Part shown: positions 2,801 to 39,116 of the stretch, piece by piece
Numbering within the stretch: the stretch's first letter is position 1
Layout of the letters: every line of letters starts with the position of its first letter
Assembly (NCBI GenBank): GCA_001799485.1
Contig: MGTO01000124.1
Location: forward strand, 1-46,799
Origin: Desulfuromonadales bacterium GWC2_61_20
GTDB lineage: Bacteria; Desulfobacterota; Desulfuromonadia; Desulfuromonadales; UBA2197
DNA length: 46,799 nucleotides
Direction: 5' to 3'
Position numbers and translations under genes: made by a program
The notes under the pieces: model-generated
Seen by the model: only the letters and a program-made list of their open reading frames with translations
Database searches by the model: none
What the model was told of the DNA's origin: nothing

Positions 2801-4426
2801 TCACAGCACGGCACTGAGCCCCGAATCGCGCTGATACAGATCGGGGCGAAACTGGACCTCCCCGTTGTCTTCGATCCAGGCTGTCCAGTAGACGATGTGG
2901 ATCGGCCTCGGCTCCGGCAGATGAACGATGCGGCCGCCGCCTTCGTCGAGGGCTGCCGTGAGCGCCGCAACGCTGGCGTAGGAGGTGCCGGCGAGCAGCC
3001 GCAGGGCGAGTTCGCGCGGCTTAGCGACACGAATACAGCCGGAGCTGAATGCCGGAGTTGTCGCGGAGAAAAGGGATCGGGACGGAGTATCGTGCAGGTA
3101 GATACGCTCGTCATTGGGGACGATGAATTTGAGCCGGCCGAGGGCATTGTGTGGGCCAGGCTCCTGGACCAGATGATAGGGAAAGTTCTCCCGCCCCAGA
3201 GACGACCAATCGATGGAGGCGGGGTCGAGTTCGTCCCCGTTCCGGTGCCCGGCAGCATAGACGTGAAAACCGCGACGGATCAGGTAGCTGGCATCCGCTT
3301 GCGCAAGGGGCAGGAGATCGGCGACGGCGATACTATGGGGCACATCCCATTGCGGATTGAGTACGACGGCGGTAATCGTGCTGGAAAAGTTCGGGGTCTG
3401 CCGGGCCTGGCGGCCGACAATGACCCGCATCGCCAAGGTAACGCGCTTCTTATCCCAGAGTTGCAAGGTAAAGCCGGGGATGTTGACGAGGAGGGCGCGC
3501 TCGGAGAAATTGCGCGACAGCCAGCGACGGCGTTCGAGATTGAGGGCCAGCTGCCTGGCGCGAGCAGACGCCGGGACATTGAGCGCCGCCCGAGTTTTCG
3601 CCCCGACGACACCATTGACGGCGAGCCCGTAACGGCGCTGGAAAGTGCGGACCGCAGCCTCCAGCTGCGCGTCGAAGCACTCGCCATTGAGCGCTACGGC
3701 GGGCAGCTCCCCTTCACTGGCCAGACGCTGGCGCAGAAGGGAGACGCTCCGCCCGGTACTCCCCCGGCGGAGCACGGGCTGGTCAGGAATTCGTGGCCAG
3801 CCGCCGTTTTCCGCAATCTTTTGGTAACGCTGCCAGGCCGCGCGCAGGGCCGCATAGTCGGGATGGGTGGGGAGCAGACTCTGGAGCGTGGTCCGCACCT
3901 GGCCACCGACCAGAGCCCGATCGAGGAGCTGTGCCAGCTCGCGCGGAGCTTCGGGTGACGGCTCGCGTCCATGGGCATGCGCAGGGGCTGAGCGGCCATG
4001 GTGAAAGTCGCAGGCGAGTTGAAAAAAGGCATCACTGAGGAGCAATTCTAGATCGTTCGCCAATTCACCGACGGGGGTCAAAAGATAACGACGGCGCAAG
4101 ACATCAAGGGCCGCAGCATGATAGTGACGCGGCTCGAGTCCCTCTTCCGCCGCGGCAGCGATCACGTCGAGAAGTTCCACCGCCCCCGGACGCAGGTATG
4201 AACCGATGGTCCAGACGGGTTGATAGGCGTGCCCTTCGTAAAAGGCGACCAGCGCAGGAGTCTGATAAAGCGGCTCGGCGGCAACCTCCATCCGCAGGGG
4301 CGCACCGACCCCTTGCAGCCGTTGTTGCAGACCGGAGCCGAGATCGAGGGCGTGCGTTGTCTGCGGCCAGGACCCGAGCAAGGCGAGAACGAGCCAACTT
4401 CGGAGCAAGTCGTTGCGTGTGACCAT
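2801..4426 (-). CDS. L,D-transpeptidase, YcbB/LdtD type, with peptidoglycan-binding domain
   Basis: Signal peptide, scaffold domain, PG-binding motif 'AVRTFQRRYGLAVNGVVG', catalytic 'IYLHDTP...FSSGCIRV'. Confidence 0.9.
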   Translation of the reverse strand: MVTRNDLLRSWLVLALLGSWPQTTHALDLGSGLQQRLQGVGAPLRMEVAAEPLYQTPALVAFYEGHAYQPVWTIGSYLRPGAVELLDVIAAAAEEGLEPRHYHAAALDVLRRRYLLTPVGELANDLELLLSDAFFQLACDFHHGRSAPAHAHGREPSPEAPRELAQLLDRALVGGQVRTTLQSLLPTHPDYAALRAAWQRYQKIAENGGWPRIPDQPVLRRGSTGRSVSLLRQRLASEGELPAVALNGECFDAQLEAAVRTFQRRYGLAVNGVVGAKTRAALNVPASARARQLALNLERRRWLSRNFSERALLVNIPGFTLQLWDKKRVTLAMRVIVGRQARQTPNFSSTITAVVLNPQWDVPHSIAVADLLPLAQADASYLIRRGFHVYAAGHRNGDELDPASIDWSSLGRENFPYHLVQEPGPHNALGRLKFIVPNDERIYLHDTPSRSLFSATTPAFSSGCIRVAKPRELALRLLAGTSYASVAALTAALDEGGGRIVHLPEPRPIHIVYWTAWIEDNGEVQFRPDLYQRDSGLSAVL

Positions 4427-33955: not shown

Positions 33956-34975
33956 ATGAACGAGCGGATGATCAACGCCGGACTCGCTGGCGACGACGAC
34001 CGCTTCGAGCAGTCGCTGCGTCCCCGGACCCTCGATGAATATATCGGCCAGATCAAGGCTAAAGAGAATCTGCAGGTATTCATCGATGCGGCGCGAGGGC
34101 GTCACGAGGCTCTCGACCATGTCCTCTTTTACGGCCCCCCCGGCTTGGGCAAAACCACACTCGCCAACATCATCGCTGCGGAGATGGGCGTGAACATCAA
34201 GAGTACCTCCGGGCCGGTCATCGAAAAGGCCGGGGACCTGGCTGCCGTCCTCACCAATCTTGAAGCAGGGGATGTCCTCTTTATCGACGAGATCCATCGT
34301 CTTTCGCCGGTTATCGAGGAGGTCCTCTATCCCGCCATGGAGGACTTCCAGCTCGATATCATGATCGGTCAAGGCCCGTCAGCTCGAACGATCAAGCTTG
34401 ACCTCCCCCGCTTCACCCTGGTTGGGGCCACCACTCGCGCCGGGCTCCTCTCCTCCCCCCTGCGTGACCGTTTCGGGGTGATCAGCCGCCTTGAATTCTA
34501 CACCCCGCAGGAACTGGAAATCATCGTCCGTCGCAGCGCCGGCCTGCTGAATATCCCCATCGACAGCGAGGGCGGGAACGAAATTGCTCGTCGCAGCCGG
34601 GGCACTCCACGCATCGCCAACCGACTCCTCCGCCGGGTGCGGGATTTTGCCCAGGTCAAAGGAACGGGAATCATCGATCAGGCGTTGGCCGATCTCGCCC
34701 TGGGACGGCTTGAAGTCGACCAGTGCGGTTTTGATCACATGGACCGGCGCCTACTCCTGACCATCATTGATAAGTTCGCCGGTGGACCGGTCGGTCTGGA
34801 AACCCTGGCGGCCGCCATTGGTGAGGAGAAAGATACCATCGAGGACGTCATCGAGCCCTTCCTGATGCAGCAGGGTTATCTCAACCGCACGCCACGAGGT
34901 CGGACCGCTACGTCCTTGGCCTATCGCCATTTCCAACGCTTGCCACCGGCAGGAGAGAACCCCCTCTTCGCCTAG
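33956..34975 (+). CDS. ruvB: Holliday junction branch-migration ATPase RuvB
   Basis: [28 protein letters not shown] and RTPRGR. Confidence 0.98.
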
Positions 34976-34987
34976 GGGTCCACTTGT

Positions 34988-36334
34988 ATGTCAAACAGCC
35001 AGCCCAGCGCTTCAGGCACACGGTGGCAACTTAACGTCACCGAGAAGATCGTCGCCGGCTATCTTGCCCTCGCTTTCTTCAGCTTCGGCGCCCTGCTTCT
35101 GGCCCTCTTTGCCATCCACAGCCAAGCGGCAATTTCACGGGGTCTGGTCAACCGCGATTTCAAGGCGGTCGGCCTGATCCGTGACCTGCGCGGCAATCTG
35201 GCCGCTCAGGAGCGTCTGGAGCGCCAGTTCCTGATCCTGCACGATAGCGATCTCCTCTCCTTGCGACAGTCCCGATCCCAGGAGTTTTCTGCGAGCTGGA
35301 AGGCACTTGCCCTCCTCGATCTCGACGATATCCTGCCATTACACACCACAGCCGCAGCACTGATGCGGCAGCAGGAGACCCTCGGTGCATTACTCCAGGG
35401 AAATAGCCCCGCCGCAGAACTTTTGCTCGAAAAAGAGCTTCTCCCCTTACGCTCGACCCTGGATAAGGGTCTTCTCGAAGCCTCCCACAATCGGGAAGCG
35501 CTCATTGATCGTTCCTTGCAGCAACTTTACAATGAAAGCGACCGCGCCTACCGCTTCACGCTGGTCCTTCTGGTCGTCGGGGTTGCCATCGGCGGCGGCA
35601 TCGCCATCCGGGTAGTCCAAAGCATTCGTCACTCGCTGCGACGCTTGACCGAAGCTGTCCGCGATACTGCCGAAGAGCGCTTCAACCCTTCCCTGCATGA
35701 AATCGGTGACGACGAATTCGGCCGTCTGGCCGGGGAATTCGTCCAGATGGGGATCAAACTGCGCGACCTGAAACGCCAGCATTTGGACGCCAACCCGCTG
35801 ACCCATCTCCCCGGCAATCTTGCCATCGAACGCGAACTGGAGCGGCGCATCGCCAGTGGCGAACCCTTTGCCCATGTCTATATCGATCTTGACCATTTCA
35901 AAGCCTATGGCGATCGCTATGGCTACCAGAAGGGGAGCGATGTCCTGGCTTTCACCGGCGAGCTGATTCGCCGCAATGTCGAGGTCAACGGTAATCCCGC
36001 CGACCTGGTCGGCCACATCGGCGGAGACGATTATCTGGTCCTGACCACTCCGGGCTGTGCCGAGCCGATCGCTCGCAGCATCATCAAAGAATTTGACGAA
36101 GCACGAAAAACCTTCTATACCTCAGAAGACTGCGCGGATGGTCAGTATGAGGGAATCGATCGTTTTGGAGAAAAACGCACCTTTCCGCTCATGAGTATCT
36201 CCATTGCCATCATTTGCTCGGACAATGTCATTAACCCGACCCGACACTCCATCAGCGCGGAGAGTTCAAAGATGAAAGAACATCTCAAGCAGCTTCCAGG
36301 GAGTAATTATCTTGTCGATCGGCGCAAAAGATAG
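34988..36334 (+). CDS. Membrane diguanylate cyclase (periplasmic sensor-HAMP-GGDEF)
   Basis: Two TM segments, HAMP (DEFGRLA), DANPLTHLPGN, YIDLDHFKAYGDRYG and GHIGGDDY. Confidence 0.88.
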   Translation: MSNSQPSASGTRWQLNVTEKIVAGYLALAFFSFGALLLALFAIHSQAAISRGLVNRDFKAVGLIRDLRGNLAAQERLERQFLILHDSDLLSLRQSRSQEFSASWKALALLDLDDILPLHTTAAALMRQQETLGALLQGNSPAAELLLEKELLPLRSTLDKGLLEASHNREALIDRSLQQLYNESDRAYRFTLVLLVVGVAIGGGIAIRVVQSIRHSLRRLTEAVRDTAEERFNPSLHEIGDDEFGRLAGEFVQMGIKLRDLKRQHLDANPLTHLPGNLAIERELERRIASGEPFAHVYIDLDHFKAYGDRYGYQKGSDVLAFTGELIRRNVEVNGNPADLVGHIGGDDYLVLTTPGCAEPIARSIIKEFDEARKTFYTSEDCADGQYEGIDRFGEKRTFPLMSISIAIICSDNVINPTRHSISAESSKMKEHLKQLPGSNYLVDRRKR

Positions 36335-36338
36335 TCTC

Positions 36339-36707
36339 GTGTGGCGCGCCCTGCTGATCGTCATCTTCGCCCTCAGCGGCTGCCTGGCGCCCCCCCCTCC
36401 GTCCCGGAGCGAGCTGGCCCAGGCTGACCGCCTGCTCGTTACCGGCATTACGGATTTTCTTGAAAATCGTCCCCTCTCTGCCCTGGAAACCTTAACAACC
36501 AGCTACCCCCGAACGCATCAAGCCGAACTGGCGCGACAGATTCTCGGCTGGAAGCAGGCACACCCGGAAACGGTTTCGCCCCTGGCCACTAAAAAGTCTG
36601 TGAGTGACTCGGAATTGCACGAGTTGCGTGACGAAAATCAACGTCTCCGCTCCGATATTGAAAAACTGCGGCGCATCCTTATCGACAGTGAGCGCCGCAC
36701 CCCCTGA
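36339..36707 (+). CDS. Lipoprotein with C-terminal coiled coil (QseG/YfhG-like)
   Basis: Lipobox ALSGC, a helical body and the coiled coil SDSELHELRDENQRLRSDIEKLRRILIDSERR. Start uncertain (36312 or 36339). Confidence 0.75.
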   Translation: MWRALLIVIFALSGCLAPPPPSRSELAQADRLLVTGITDFLENRPLSALETLTTSYPRTHQAELARQILGWKQAHPETVSPLATKKSVSDSELHELRDENQRLRSDIEKLRRILIDSERRTP

Positions 36708-36785: not shown

Positions 36786-39116
36786 ATGCCGATGAATAAG
36801 CAGACCCTTCGTACTTTTTGCCAACAGTTGGCTGCCTGGGCCCAAACCGCTATCGACGAGGGGAATTACCCCTACCGCAAGGTCGAACTCTTTCCATCGT
36901 TACTGAGCGCGAGCGGGGAACTCACCCCACCACTGGTTTTCTGGATCAATCGAGACAGCTTCATGGCCGGCGCGGTTGTGTTCTTCCCCGATAACGACGC
37001 GGAAGAGCATCTCACCCCAGAGCAAAATTGTACCACCGCCCTCGGCCTCGACTATTTTGTCACCTGGGGGCGCAATGAAATCATCTGCTGGAAGGTCGAG
37101 GAGGAAAAAACCACTCGCTTCCGGACCCTGTCGGCTCGCCCCCCGGCAGCAGATTCTCCCGCAGCCTATCGCCACCTCCTGCTGCAATTGCTCGGTGAAA
37201 TGCAACCCTTGTCCGCCAGGGGTCTGTTACCAGCGGAACGTCTCTCTCCCTACTATTTTGCCAATCTCTTCCGTACCGTACTCACCGCCACCCTCCCCGG
37301 TCTCCGCGACCAACTGCGCCGCAAGCGCGTTGGCGCACTAGCGCCGGAAGCTCTCCCTCCCGATGCCGCAGCCCTGAGAAAGGCGGTCACGAGTCTGTTA
37401 CGGCTGGTGGCACTGGTCGGCTTTGATGCCCTTCCGGCTTCGGTACAGCCGGAGGGGCTGGAGCAGGCGGCGCGTTACGCCCTCGAGACGCTACCGCCCG
37501 AACTGCACCCCTCCCTCGCTTTTTCCGGGAATGAGCTTCCCCTCACCCCCGCCGCCGCAATCCGTTTTCACCATTTACTGCGTCGGCTCACCCAGCTACG
37601 GATGCACTGTGATCTTGCTCGGACGGCCACGGCACTCGAACTGCTCCTGGACAGCTATCGTCACCAGCTTGGCGGGATGCCGCATCTCGCCGACTCCCCC
37701 CTGGCCGGGCCGGGCAACCTGCTGATCAACCCAACGACCACGATCTCTCCTGAGCCCCCTTTCTTTGAAAGTGCCTCGCCCCCACTCCTGGCATTTTTCT
37801 CCCTCATCCGGGCCTTCAAGAAGATGCCCGCAGCCACACAACAATTCACTTCGCCACTTTTTGTCGGCGCAGCGGTTCGTCCCCGCTCGATATGCGGCGT
37901 GCTGGGAGAGAGCCGGATCCCTCCCTTGCGGGAGCATTCCCTCCTGGCGACGTATCTGCGCATTTCGTGGCCAGGCAGACGTTGGGTTTTCCCGCCGGGA
38001 ACCCCACGCTGGGCCTGGGATTTGCTGCATCTCCTCGGTCTCGCCGAACCTGGCGCCACCATCGACGTGACCACCCCGGGGCGATGGTTAGCCAGCCCCT
38101 TCGCCACGATCCTCTGCGAAGTATGCTGCGAGCACTGCTCGCTCCAGCAGGTTCACCTAAGCAACACGGCTGAACTACGTTTTTCCCTCACCAAATCTGT
38201 CTCCACGCACGAGTCGGTCCTTCTCCTGACCCCACATGGGGAGCGTTCCCTTCCTTACAAACGGCTCCGCCAGGCCCCCGGATCGATCCTTGCCCTCGCT
38301 CTCGCTCTGCCACCCAACCTTTTCCCCCTACTCGCAGAGGGCCATCTACGCCCAGTAGCAGCAGGATTAAGTGGCGATCAGTTGGCCGGGGCCGATTTTT
38401 TTGCCACCTCGACACTGGGGCAGCTGCTGACAACCATCCTGAGCGCACATGGTGCGGCGATACCCAGGGGCCTGCGGTTCGATCCGCAAAGCTATCCTCT
38501 CCCCGATCCGCAGTTGCTTGGGCAATTGGCGACAGATTTGCCGGAGAGGACCCCACCGTCGCAAGAGACGTTCGACCAGGAAGTAAACAGCTGCCCCCCC
38601 ACCCCACCCCTGGTCCTGTCGACCGGGGCAGAGCTGTTCTTGCCCCCATCGAAGTTGGTCAACAGAGGAAAATCGTTGTCAGCCCTGATGGAGTTGCTTA
38701 TCCAAACGGTTTTTGCCGACGGCATACCACTTTTCCCGGATCACTATCTTTTCGCTTACCTGAACCCGGAGACCTTCTGCATTGATCTCCCCGAGCCTTT
38801 AGCCTTTGCTGAAACCTTCTTCGATCGCGCAACACTGACCGCGGCATCCGGTCGCCGACTCGACATAGAAGGACTGGCGACTGCCCGGGCGATCGTGCTC
38901 TGCTCCCATGGCCGCAAGCACCAGGTAAAGCTCCCCGTCGACCCAACGATTATGCGGGCAATCCTTGAGCGTTATCTGGCCGATCTGCGTCGACTCCACC
39001 ACACCCTGCGCCAGCTGGCCCACCAACACCTTGGCAGCGCGCGCCAAGCCGACAACCTTGCTACTCGGATCTGGAAGGACATGCACCTTCCCCCACCCGA
39101 CTTGTTTGACAGCTAG
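36786..39116 (+). CDS. Hypothetical 776-aa protein, probably a degenerate Type IIG restriction-modification-like protein
   Basis: Long intact ORF with residual RM-like segments (YFVTW, RHQLG, LLINP, PGATIDVTTPGRWL) but no FxGxG or NPPY. Confidence 0.6.
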   Translation: MPMNKQTLRTFCQQLAAWAQTAIDEGNYPYRKVELFPSLLSASGELTPPLVFWINRDSFMAGAVVFFPDNDAEEHLTPEQNCTTALGLDYFVTWGRNEIICWKVEEEKTTRFRTLSARPPAADSPAAYRHLLLQLLGEMQPLSARGLLPAERLSPYYFANLFRTVLTATLPGLRDQLRRKRVGALAPEALPPDAAALRKAVTSLLRLVALVGFDALPASVQPEGLEQAARYALETLPPELHPSLAFSGNELPLTPAAAIRFHHLLRRLTQLRMHCDLARTATALELLLDSYRHQLGGMPHLADSPLAGPGNLLINPTTTISPEPPFFESASPPLLAFFSLIRAFKKMPAATQQFTSPLFVGAAVRPRSICGVLGESRIPPLREHSLLATYLRISWPGRRWVFPPGTPRWAWDLLHLLGLAEPGATIDVTTPGRWLASPFATILCEVCCEHCSLQQVHLSNTAELRFSLTKSVSTHESVLLLTPHGERSLPYKRLRQAPGSILALALALPPNLFPLLAEGHLRPVAAGLSGDQLAGADFFATSTLGQLLTTILSAHGAAIPRGLRFDPQSYPLPDPQLLGQLATDLPERTPPSQETFDQEVNSCPPTPPLVLSTGAELFLPPSKLVNRGKSLSALMELLIQTVFADGIPLFPDHYLFAYLNPETFCIDLPEPLAFAETFFDRATLTAASGRRLDIEGLATARAIVLCSHGRKHQVKLPVDPTIMRAILERYLADLRRLHHTLRQLAHQHLGSARQADNLATRIWKDMHLPPPDLFDS

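Follow-up and report, generated by a model that had tools for sequence, protein, structure and literature searches.

The sensor kinase QseE (GlrK) and the lipoprotein QseG form, according to cryo-electron microscopy, a 2:2 complex in which the C-terminal helices of a QseG dimer lie astride the QseE bundle at the tip farthest from the membrane (PMC12691602). The qseEGF genes have been reported in Gamma- and Betaproteobacteria and in Acidithiobacillia (PMC12691602). Another described system is GSU1937 of Geobacter sulfurreducens, a 'Hypr' GGDEF protein with transmembrane (TM) and HAMP regions, a serine at the Ser348-type position and a GGDDF motif, which acts as the second 3',3'-cyclic GMP-AMP (3',3'-cGAMP) synthase of this bacterium and has 'many homologues within Deltaproteobacteria' (PMC8835794). 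Here, we describe a pair of adjacent genes, encoding a sensor cyclase and a lipoprotein, which recalls both systems. The pair is located in contig MGTO01000124.1 (GCA_001799485.1) of Desulfuromonadales bacterium GWC2_61_20, of which 46,799 nucleotides (nt) were analysed (the window); residue numbers are those of the window's own proteins, and coordinates refer to the forward strand (+) unless marked otherwise. We propose, as a reading that we consider evenly balanced between right and wrong, that the pair constitutes an envelope-sensing module, in which a QseE-type sensor is joined to a Hypr cyclase and the lipoprotein acts as an accessory partner.

Both open reading frames (ORFs) are present where the sequence-only reading, an earlier interpretation made from the DNA letters alone, had placed them, at 34988-36334 (+) and 36312-36707 (+). 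The sensor cyclase gene (34988..36334) encodes 448 amino acids (aa), comprising a first TM segment (TM1), a periplasmic four-helix bundle (4HB), a second TM segment (TM2), a HAMP domain and a variant GGDEF domain. The lipoprotein gene (36312..36707) encodes 131 aa; it begins with a TTG codon preceded by GGGAG 8 nt upstream (with an alternative GTG start at 36339) and overlaps the end of the cyclase gene by 23 nt on the same strand. No terminator-like site was seen between the cyclase gene, the lipoprotein gene and the gene for a 776-aa protein that follows them.

The pairing is conserved in many families of the order. The sequence-only reading had asked whether the adjacency is maintained, and it is: in 29 of 30 lipoprotein-centred loci, the cyclase gene was found directly upstream of the lipoprotein gene and on the same strand (intact in 27, broken in two), the 30th locus being the end of a 1.8-kb contig. 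At the two broken loci, L095 (genome G013) and L113 (G530), the lipoprotein gene is intact, but the cyclase reading frame is interrupted and falls into two or three pieces, as a result of either sequencing error or decay. Profile searches in 201 genomes of the order detected the sensor in 134 and the lipoprotein in 130, and the tallies of sensor and lipoprotein were near-identical in most families (17/17 and 17/17, 40/42 and 42/42, 20/42 and 21/42, 5/24 and 5/24). Neither was found in the sister genus of the organism's own family (0/4 for both). The exceptions that lack the lipoprotein belong to three families: in two, the 776-aa protein is encoded directly after the cyclase, and in the third a small membrane protein is. 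In family f9 (loci L167, L169, L170 and L174), a membrane protein of ~69-79 aa with the motif GKLPGD..F....F.FYFPL replaces the lipoprotein.

The periplasmic sensor comprises residues 44-189 (146 residues, 35117..35554), between TM1 (residues 21-43, 35048..35116) and TM2 (residues 190-210, 35555..35617), which were both assigned from hydrophobic stretches in the translation. Its AlphaFold2 model consists of four helices, with a predicted local distance difference test (pLDDT) of 87.5. When compared by BLASTP, the sensor and E. coli GlrK aligned over 103 aa, in corresponding places behind TM1, with 31% identity (E 0.098). For broader profiles, 300 genomes of E. coli's class were searched for QseE-like kinases, which were taken from 57 of them (a tally that includes the unpublished genome G337, otherwise left unused), and the resulting QseE-sensor alignment contained 44 sequences from Enterobacterales and other Gamma and Beta lineages. 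Against this alignment, 27 sensors of the window's family gave an hhalign probability of 95.4% (P 1.7e-8, score 53.5), with columns 3-76 aligned on columns 3-76 and co-linear from TM1, while reversed-sequence controls gave a score of 17 (P 0.034 and 0.04). Matches by hidden Markov model (HMM) were reciprocal, as the QseE-sensor HMM found 27/27 family sensors and the family HMM found 44/44 QseE sensors. Among 23,421 six-frame ORFs of the organism's own genome, the QseE-sensor HMM had a single match, the window cyclase (E 2.1e-6); the two Pfam 4HB_MCP_1 proteins of this genome scored -3.9 and -5.5 bits. The resemblance to GlrK/QseE that had been noted in the sequence-only reading is consequently above chance, albeit only with broad profiles, and these show the periplasmic four-helix bundle to be homologous, as far as sequence profiles can tell, to the QseE/GlrK sensor.

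A sensor profile search in 1.84 billion representative proteins returned 76 matches at E<=0.001, of which 29 were scanned with Pfam; these included 19 GGDEF proteins (mostly with HAMP), six histidine kinases and one chemoreceptor. E. coli GlrK matched three kinases from the 76 (P0065, P0075 and P0085) at 212-223 bits; with only the first 200 residues of these kinases, the E values were 1e-8 to 4e-9. More distant matches of the sensor profile touched Pfam 4HB_MCP_1 or CHASE3, and Pfam assigned no family at a useful level to the 27 family sensor domains. In a VIA structure search, the sensor model matched 4HB sensors at Z 13.5-15.9; QseE (8jwd) was matched at Z 13.5 over 123 aligned residues and with the top sequence identity in the list.

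The part of QseE which is touched by QseG has a counterpart in the window sensor. The QseE residues reported to contact QseG are E67, E69, R70, R73, Q74, V77, L78, D80, T82 and E140, and the substitution R70A abolishes QseG binding (PMC12691602). In the alignment of the window sensor with QseE, E75 corresponds to E69, R76 to R70, R79 to R73, Q80 to Q74, I83 to V77, L84 to L78 and D86 to D80. These positions belong to the tip motif QERLERQFLILHD at the end of sensor helix 1 (residues 74-86, 35207..35245). The same residues form the best-conserved stretch of the family, Q-E-R-L-E-(K/R)-Q-x-L-(I/V)-L-x-D, which coincides with the QseE contact residues. The Q and D of the motif are invariant (27/27 family sensors), and the position of R76 is occupied by arginine in 22/27, as counted from the alignment.

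The protein as a whole was considered as a QseE/GlrK histidine kinase and rejected, since its output is HAMP plus GGDEF and since the lipoprotein gene is followed by the gene for the 776-aa protein, not by that of a response regulator. The HAMP domain spans residues 209-259 (35612..35764; Pfam PF00672, E 1.9e-6) and the variant GGDEF domain residues 270-448 (35795..36331; Pfam PF00990, 43.6 bits, E 3.5e-11). The latter match is weak and covers only profile positions 5-110 of 161. The catalytic domain aligns to solved diguanylate cyclases (best 5euh, E 1.7e-10), has a distinctive C-terminus and is accompanied by neither EAL nor HD-GYP domain. At E<=1e-10, the catalytic part has 1283 relatives of about 440 aa each, and those with a name belong to Desulfuromonas, Malonomonas, Geoalkalibacter, Syntrophotaleaceae and Geopsychrobacteraceae.

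Several active-site positions depart from the canonical enzyme. The motif GGDDY (residues 345-349, 36020..36034) stands where the canonical one is GG(D/E)EF, and among 27 aligned relatives GGDDY was found in 24 and GGDDF in three. Two residues ahead of the GG motif, His343 replaces the canonical Arg. Five residues ahead of it, NPAD (35993..36004) takes the place of the RxxD inhibitory site, and an Arg at this site was found in none of the 27 relatives; here the observation of the sequence-only reading was accurate. Ser317 (codon 35936..35938) gives the window cyclase GS where solved cyclases have GD, and GS is present in 27/27 relatives. This is the Hypr specificity position, which we take to be that of PleD Asp344 (PleD numbering). 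Among relatives that lack the lipoprotein, two of eight carry Asn instead of Ser there; two cyclases of the family f9 loci have this Asn. For all of these reasons (GGDDY, Ser317, His343 and no RxxD), a canonical diguanylate cyclase of PleD/WspR type was rejected. The sequence-only reading had assigned an HAMP-GGDEF output in place of the kinase, which stands, and had taken the enzyme for an ordinary diguanylate cyclase, which does not agree with GGDD(Y/F) and with Ser in 27/27.

Together, the serine at the Hypr position, the GGDD(F/Y) motif and the N-terminal TM and HAMP regions are those of the GSU1937 type. The role of the serine, which corresponds to GacA S348, lies in base specificity (PMC8835794). 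Deletion of GSU1937 lowered a cGAMP reporter by ~25% on fumarate and by ~70% on Fe(III) citrate; the wild-type full-length protein was silent in E. coli, and one fusion carrying the catalytic domain yielded both cGAMP and cyclic dimeric GMP (c-di-GMP), while the GADDF mutant of this fusion was dead (PMC8835794). For the window cyclase, the residues named above make 3',3'-cGAMP the most likely product, possibly together with some c-di-GMP.

The lipoprotein carries the lipobox LSGC with Cys24 (36372..36383), a three-helix TPR-like part (residues 32-83, 36405..36560, delimited on the model and bearing a YP.SPW signature in relatives) and a long C-terminal helix of 45 residues (residues 85-129, 36564..36698; residues 62-106 of the mature protein by DSSP on the model), which is a probable coiled coil. 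Its model has a pLDDT of 87.6 and shows three short helices followed by the 45-residue one. In a collection of 5.8 billion proteins, only three close relatives of the lipoprotein were found. In 24 mature lipoproteins, the lipobox Cys is invariant (24/24), the head has the pattern 'L-F..G ... Y-P-x-S-P-W' and the end has the pattern 'K-L-K-x-L-L-I-D-x-E-x-R'. Within the C-terminal motif KLRRILIDSERRTP (36663..36704), L119, E127 and R129 are likewise invariant in 24/24. The residue at position +2 after the lipobox Cys decides lipoprotein sorting in E. coli; none of the listed lipoprotein sequences has Asp there, and by this rule the lipoprotein is predicted to reside in the outer membrane.

A comparison with QseG required a broader set of QseG-like proteins. 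The NCBIfam QseG model (NF007997) recognized E. coli QseG at 359 bits, which served as positive control, and it gave only one match above its cut-off in the 300 genomes of E. coli's class. As QseG diverges too fast for this model, genes directly downstream of QseE-like kinases were taken instead, and 22 of these encode proteins with a lipobox and a terminal coiled coil. When full-length lipoproteins were compared by hhalign, only the signal peptides aligned, and the comparison was redone on mature parts. The mature lipoprotein family then aligned with 36 QseG-like proteins over 49 helix columns (probability 83.7%, P 8e-6). In the register of this alignment, lipoprotein L119 falls on L198 of E. 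coli QseG, which is L209 in Salmonella, and an extension of the register pairs R129 with R208 (R219 in Salmonella), with an L-to-R spacing of 10 in both. The kinase-binding residues of Salmonella QseG are L209, E213, R214 and R219, and the substitutions L209D and R219A abolish QseE binding (PMC12691602). The motif [LIM]xx[ILMV][ED]xx[ILM]xx[RK] is present in 29/36 QseG-like proteins; like the window's lipoprotein family, those of non-enteric origin carry it close to the C-terminus, at a distance of 1-17 residues. A common origin of the C-terminal helix with the QseG binding helix is possible, and so is convergence. A predicted complex of two sensors and two mature lipoproteins scored 0.46 against 0.29 for one control, which is below the required margin and speaks neither for nor against binding.

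A number of results weigh against a module of this kind. As for the sensor, the 27 family sensors gave an hhalign probability of 3.6% (P 0.012) when compared with 15 Enterobacterales GlrK sensors, and the family sensor profile had no match in the E. coli K-12 chromosome at E<=10. Furthermore, the best structural matches of the sensor were chemoreceptor ligand-binding domains (Z 15.9), which score above QseE (Z 13.5). From this, the fold alone says only '4HB', and it is the sequence profiles, rather than the fold, that point to the QseE branch. The tip motif is kept in six of eight sensors without a detectable lipoprotein and diverged in two. It follows that the motif cannot exist only for lipoprotein binding, and its loss in lipoprotein-less lineages, tried as a discriminating test, gave no discrimination.

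As for the lipoprotein, the QseG model NF007997 matched it over residues 96-123 only, at 13 bits (E 0.044) with a cut-off of 234, and BLASTP found no match between it and QseG. The lipoprotein profile, when run in E. coli, found the coiled coils of MukB and ZapB, not QseG. Conversely, a broad QseG HMM run in the organism's own genome missed the lipoprotein, its best, non-significant match being a CpoB-like ORF (E 0.014). In the hhalign comparison of mature parts, reversed controls reached probabilities of 35-51% (P 1.5e-4 and 3.9e-4), which means that much of the score reflects coiled-coil composition and that the excess is modest. The invariant Glu of QseG (E202) is unmatched in the register given above, and the Glu of the lipoprotein family lands on QseG S206 instead. 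The N-terminal part of the lipoprotein, finally, looks TPR-like: weak matches of TPR type were obtained with CpoB, BamD, NlpI and PilF (VIA Z up to 7.2, all under 8), Foldseek superposed the head on 2xev_A (45 columns, root-mean-square deviation 1.4), and the lipoprotein profile matched the BamD N-terminus (E 0.0019). No QseG chain was among the matches listed when the lipoprotein model was searched with Foldseek and VIA. By any sequence model used here, the lipoprotein is not a member of the QseG family. What the sequence-only reading had recognized as a lipoprotein is one (LSGC), while the QseG-like C-terminus assigned to it turned out marginal and confined to the C-terminal helix.

Two side observations concern these searches. 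The CpoB/YbgF-like ORF (G000:C126:6346-7062, minus strand) has a coiled coil followed by TPR, i.e. the reverse of the domain order in the lipoprotein. When run over the organism's own genome, the NCBIfam QseG model brought up no further QseG-like gene worth attention; a 747-aa ORF came highest (E 0.045).

The same results could be read differently, namely that the sensor is an ordinary small-molecule-binding 4HB, like those of NarX and Tar, and that the lipoprotein is co-transcribed with it but exerts no QseG-like control, having another envelope role or acting at another site. The chemoreceptor matches of the model, the tip motif retained in families without the lipoprotein and a lipoprotein/QseG likeness hardly above that of coiled-coil controls would all agree with this, and in NarX and McpN, too, this helix has a conserved Arg, which there marks ligand binding (PMC12691602). 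Against it stand the tight, overlapping pairing over many families, a QseE-type profile that is specific to the window sensor and leaves generic 4HB_MCP_1 proteins below zero, and the invariant L and R at the end of the lipoprotein helix with the spacing seen in QseG. We regard this explanation as unlikely, though it is the first that would have to be considered in place of the proposed module.

As for the output domain, two further points count against the module with a cGAMP-producing cyclase. The window cyclase has Gly308 at a position where the canonical Asn is kept in 19/27 relatives, with a possible effect on activity. In addition, its orthology to GSU1937 is deduced from the defining features common to both proteins, GSU1937 having been compared by description, not by sequence. 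The GGDEF domain might instead be a plain c-di-GMP synthase, or a dead receptor or scaffold, with an output other than cGAMP. Such a domain would be in keeping with the Gly at the canonical Asn position and the Pfam match confined to positions 5-110 of 161. Motifs of GGDDF type are usually inactive, wild-type GSU1937 had no activity in E. coli, and the active GSU1937 fusion gave c-di-GMP besides cGAMP (PMC8835794). On the other hand, the variant catalytic residues are fixed across families (27/27), as would be expected for a working site, and both the lowered in vivo cGAMP reporter of the GSU1937 deletion and the dead GADDF fusion mutant argue for an active enzyme (PMC8835794). We consider a c-di-GMP synthase or an inactive domain decidedly improbable, more so than the ordinary 4HB sensor.

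If the pair is an envelope-sensing module as proposed, its action could be pictured as follows, where we infer the nucleotide product, the contact with the lipoprotein, and the site and sign of this contact. The cyclase would be a dimeric protein of the inner membrane, with the sensor coupled via HAMP to the Hypr-type GGDEF domain, and the lipoprotein would be translationally coupled to the cyclase gene. A lipoprotein dimer would hold the cyclase in one signalling state by laying its two C-terminal helices over the end of the sensor dimer that is farthest from the membrane, where they would meet the residues ER..(K/R)Q..(I/V)L.D, as QseG does on QseE. HAMP would then pass the change to the GGDD(Y/F) domains, leading to production of 3',3'-cGAMP, and the missing RxxD site would leave the enzyme without product inhibition at the I-site. 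With the lipoprotein in the outer membrane, helix (~67 Å), head and bundle combined could bridge a large part of the periplasm, as in QseG-QseE.

A more far-reaching version, which is tentative and on the whole somewhat unlikely, is that an outer-membrane lipoprotein switches the Hypr cyclase on through the sensor tip, such that the state of the envelope or contact with minerals would be converted into 3',3'-cGAMP and thereby into control of extracellular electron transfer in Desulfuromonadales. If this envelope-to-cGAMP switch were true, the QseE-QseG mode of activation would predate the split of these phyla and would have become linked with an output other than a kinase. The silence of full-length GSU1937 in E. 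coli would likewise be accounted for, as the lipoprotein partner would be missing there. On the proposed reading, the neighbouring lipoprotein is a concrete candidate activator for the second Geobacter-type cGAMP synthase, and the alignments name a candidate interface with mutable residues on both sides.

A further point in favour of a cGAMP output comes from riboswitches. The GEMM-I RNA class includes the cGAMP receptors of Geobacter. The organism's own genome has seven riboswitches of GEMM-I class on contigs C65, C158, C111, C28, C66 and C75 (loci L175-L181), and three of the seven correspond to the c-di-GMP-I-GGC variant of Rfam. The riboswitch in L179 (1501-1590) has A at the consensus first G of GGCAAA, which is presumably a mark of cGAMP-selective GEMM-Ib aptamers. 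The sequence-only reading had also pointed to a PilZ receptor in the window. A stand-alone PilZ protein is indeed encoded there (2370-2726, +; Pfam E 3.5e-9), adjoining an L,D-transpeptidase gene (2801-4426, minus strand), and was considered as part of the module. It was rejected, as it lies 32 kb away, beyond the dcw cell-division cluster, and nothing ties it to the locus. With an output likely to be of cGAMP type, the PilZ protein is not an obvious receptor either.

In order along the window come the dcw cell-division cluster, yebC-ruvCAB, the cyclase gene, the lipoprotein gene, the 776-aa ORF and queH. The ruvB stop codon is at 34975 and the cyclase gene starts 12 nt later; the signalling gene may hence be co-transcribed with the genes for Holliday-junction resolution. 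The 776-aa ORF (36786..39116) is often the next gene after the pair (14/30 loci), but its family could not be assigned and its membership of the module is uncertain. It had no match in Pfam, NCBIfam or PADLOC. In the ESM Atlas, the protein lies near N6 methyltransferases of Eco57I/MmeI type (feature score 0.91, structure TM 0.45), which is a lead only. Four of ten larger regions are syntenic, with GDPD, yebC-ruvCAB, cyclase, lipoprotein, 776-aa protein, queH, ABC1 and lpxC to ntrY (queH was missed in one of the four). In the other six, the pair is located elsewhere and lacks the 776-aa protein.

The methyltransferase-like neighbour raises the question of whether cyclase, lipoprotein and 776-aa protein together serve in defence against phages or in some other mobile signalling system, since GGDD is also the cyclase motif of Cas10 and since in two families the 776-aa protein directly follows the cyclase. 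PADLOC, however, had no match for any of the three proteins. In the four syntenic regions, the genes around the locus (yebC-ruvCAB on one side; queH, lpxC and ntrYX on the other) are housekeeping genes whose arrangement is deeply conserved; in the remaining six, the pair does without the 776-aa protein. The G+C content is also even across the region. A mobile or anti-phage system is, in our view, very improbable.

Among known systems, YfiBNR/TpbB (DgcN) shares with the proposed module an inner-membrane HAMP-GGDEF cyclase that depends on the envelope via a lipoprotein, and the best full-length NCBIfam likeness of the window cyclase is to DgcN/YfiN (43.7 bits, with a cut-off of 325). In YfiBNR, however, control by the outer-membrane lipoprotein YfiB is indirect, in that YfiB sequesters YfiR, a periplasmic repressor; YfiN itself has a PAS-like sensor instead of a four-helix bundle and belongs to the canonical GGDEF cyclases. 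The founding member of the Hypr GGDEF proteins, GacA (GSU1658), has in common with the window cyclase the specificity serine and is a promiscuous GGDEF enzyme making 3',3'-cGAMP, but it is soluble, with a receiver domain and a GGEEF motif. GacA lacks the N-terminal TM domain of GSU1937 and retains Glu at the fourth position of the motif (PMC8835794). GSU1937 comes closest on the side of the output: both proteins have the N-terminal TM and HAMP regions, the Hypr Ser and GGDD(F/Y), lack EAL and HD-GYP, and occur in deltaproteobacterial metal reducers. The window protein differs in the Tyr that ends its motif and in the Gly at the canonical Asn position. Neither a periplasmic sensor nor a lipoprotein next to GSU1937 is treated in PMC8835794, where the words 'lipoprotein' and 'periplasm' do not occur.

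On the side of the sensor, the closest system is QseE/GlrK-QseG of E. coli and Salmonella (PDB 9m08, 9m07, 8jwd and 7x6f; PMC12691602, PMC6075780), with which the window pair shares a two-TM sensor whose 4HB belongs to one sequence family in both, a conserved contact motif where helix 1 ends, a lipoprotein gene directly downstream, and a long terminal lipoprotein helix with conserved Leu and Arg 10 apart. The output is HAMP-GGDEF in the window, whereas QseE is a histidine kinase working with the sigma-54 regulator QseF. The window lipoprotein is half the size of QseG, has a head that looks TPR-like where QseG has a helical globule, and fails the QseG model. What the sequence-only reading had observed was largely correct; its interpretation was right in outline, wrong on the output and too confident on QseG. 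Among the papers searched, none joined QseG with GGDEF cyclases, and PMC12691602 mentions neither GGDEF nor Geobacter. The window module, found in Desulfuromonadales, lies outside the reported range of qseEGF. If the proposed module is true, the accessory-lipoprotein mechanism would not be limited to Pseudomonadota or to two-component kinases and would extend to cyclic dinucleotides as output. Compared with the systems described so far, the locus combines in a new way two mechanisms that have been described only recently, the QseE-QseG lipoprotein and the Hypr cGAMP synthase.

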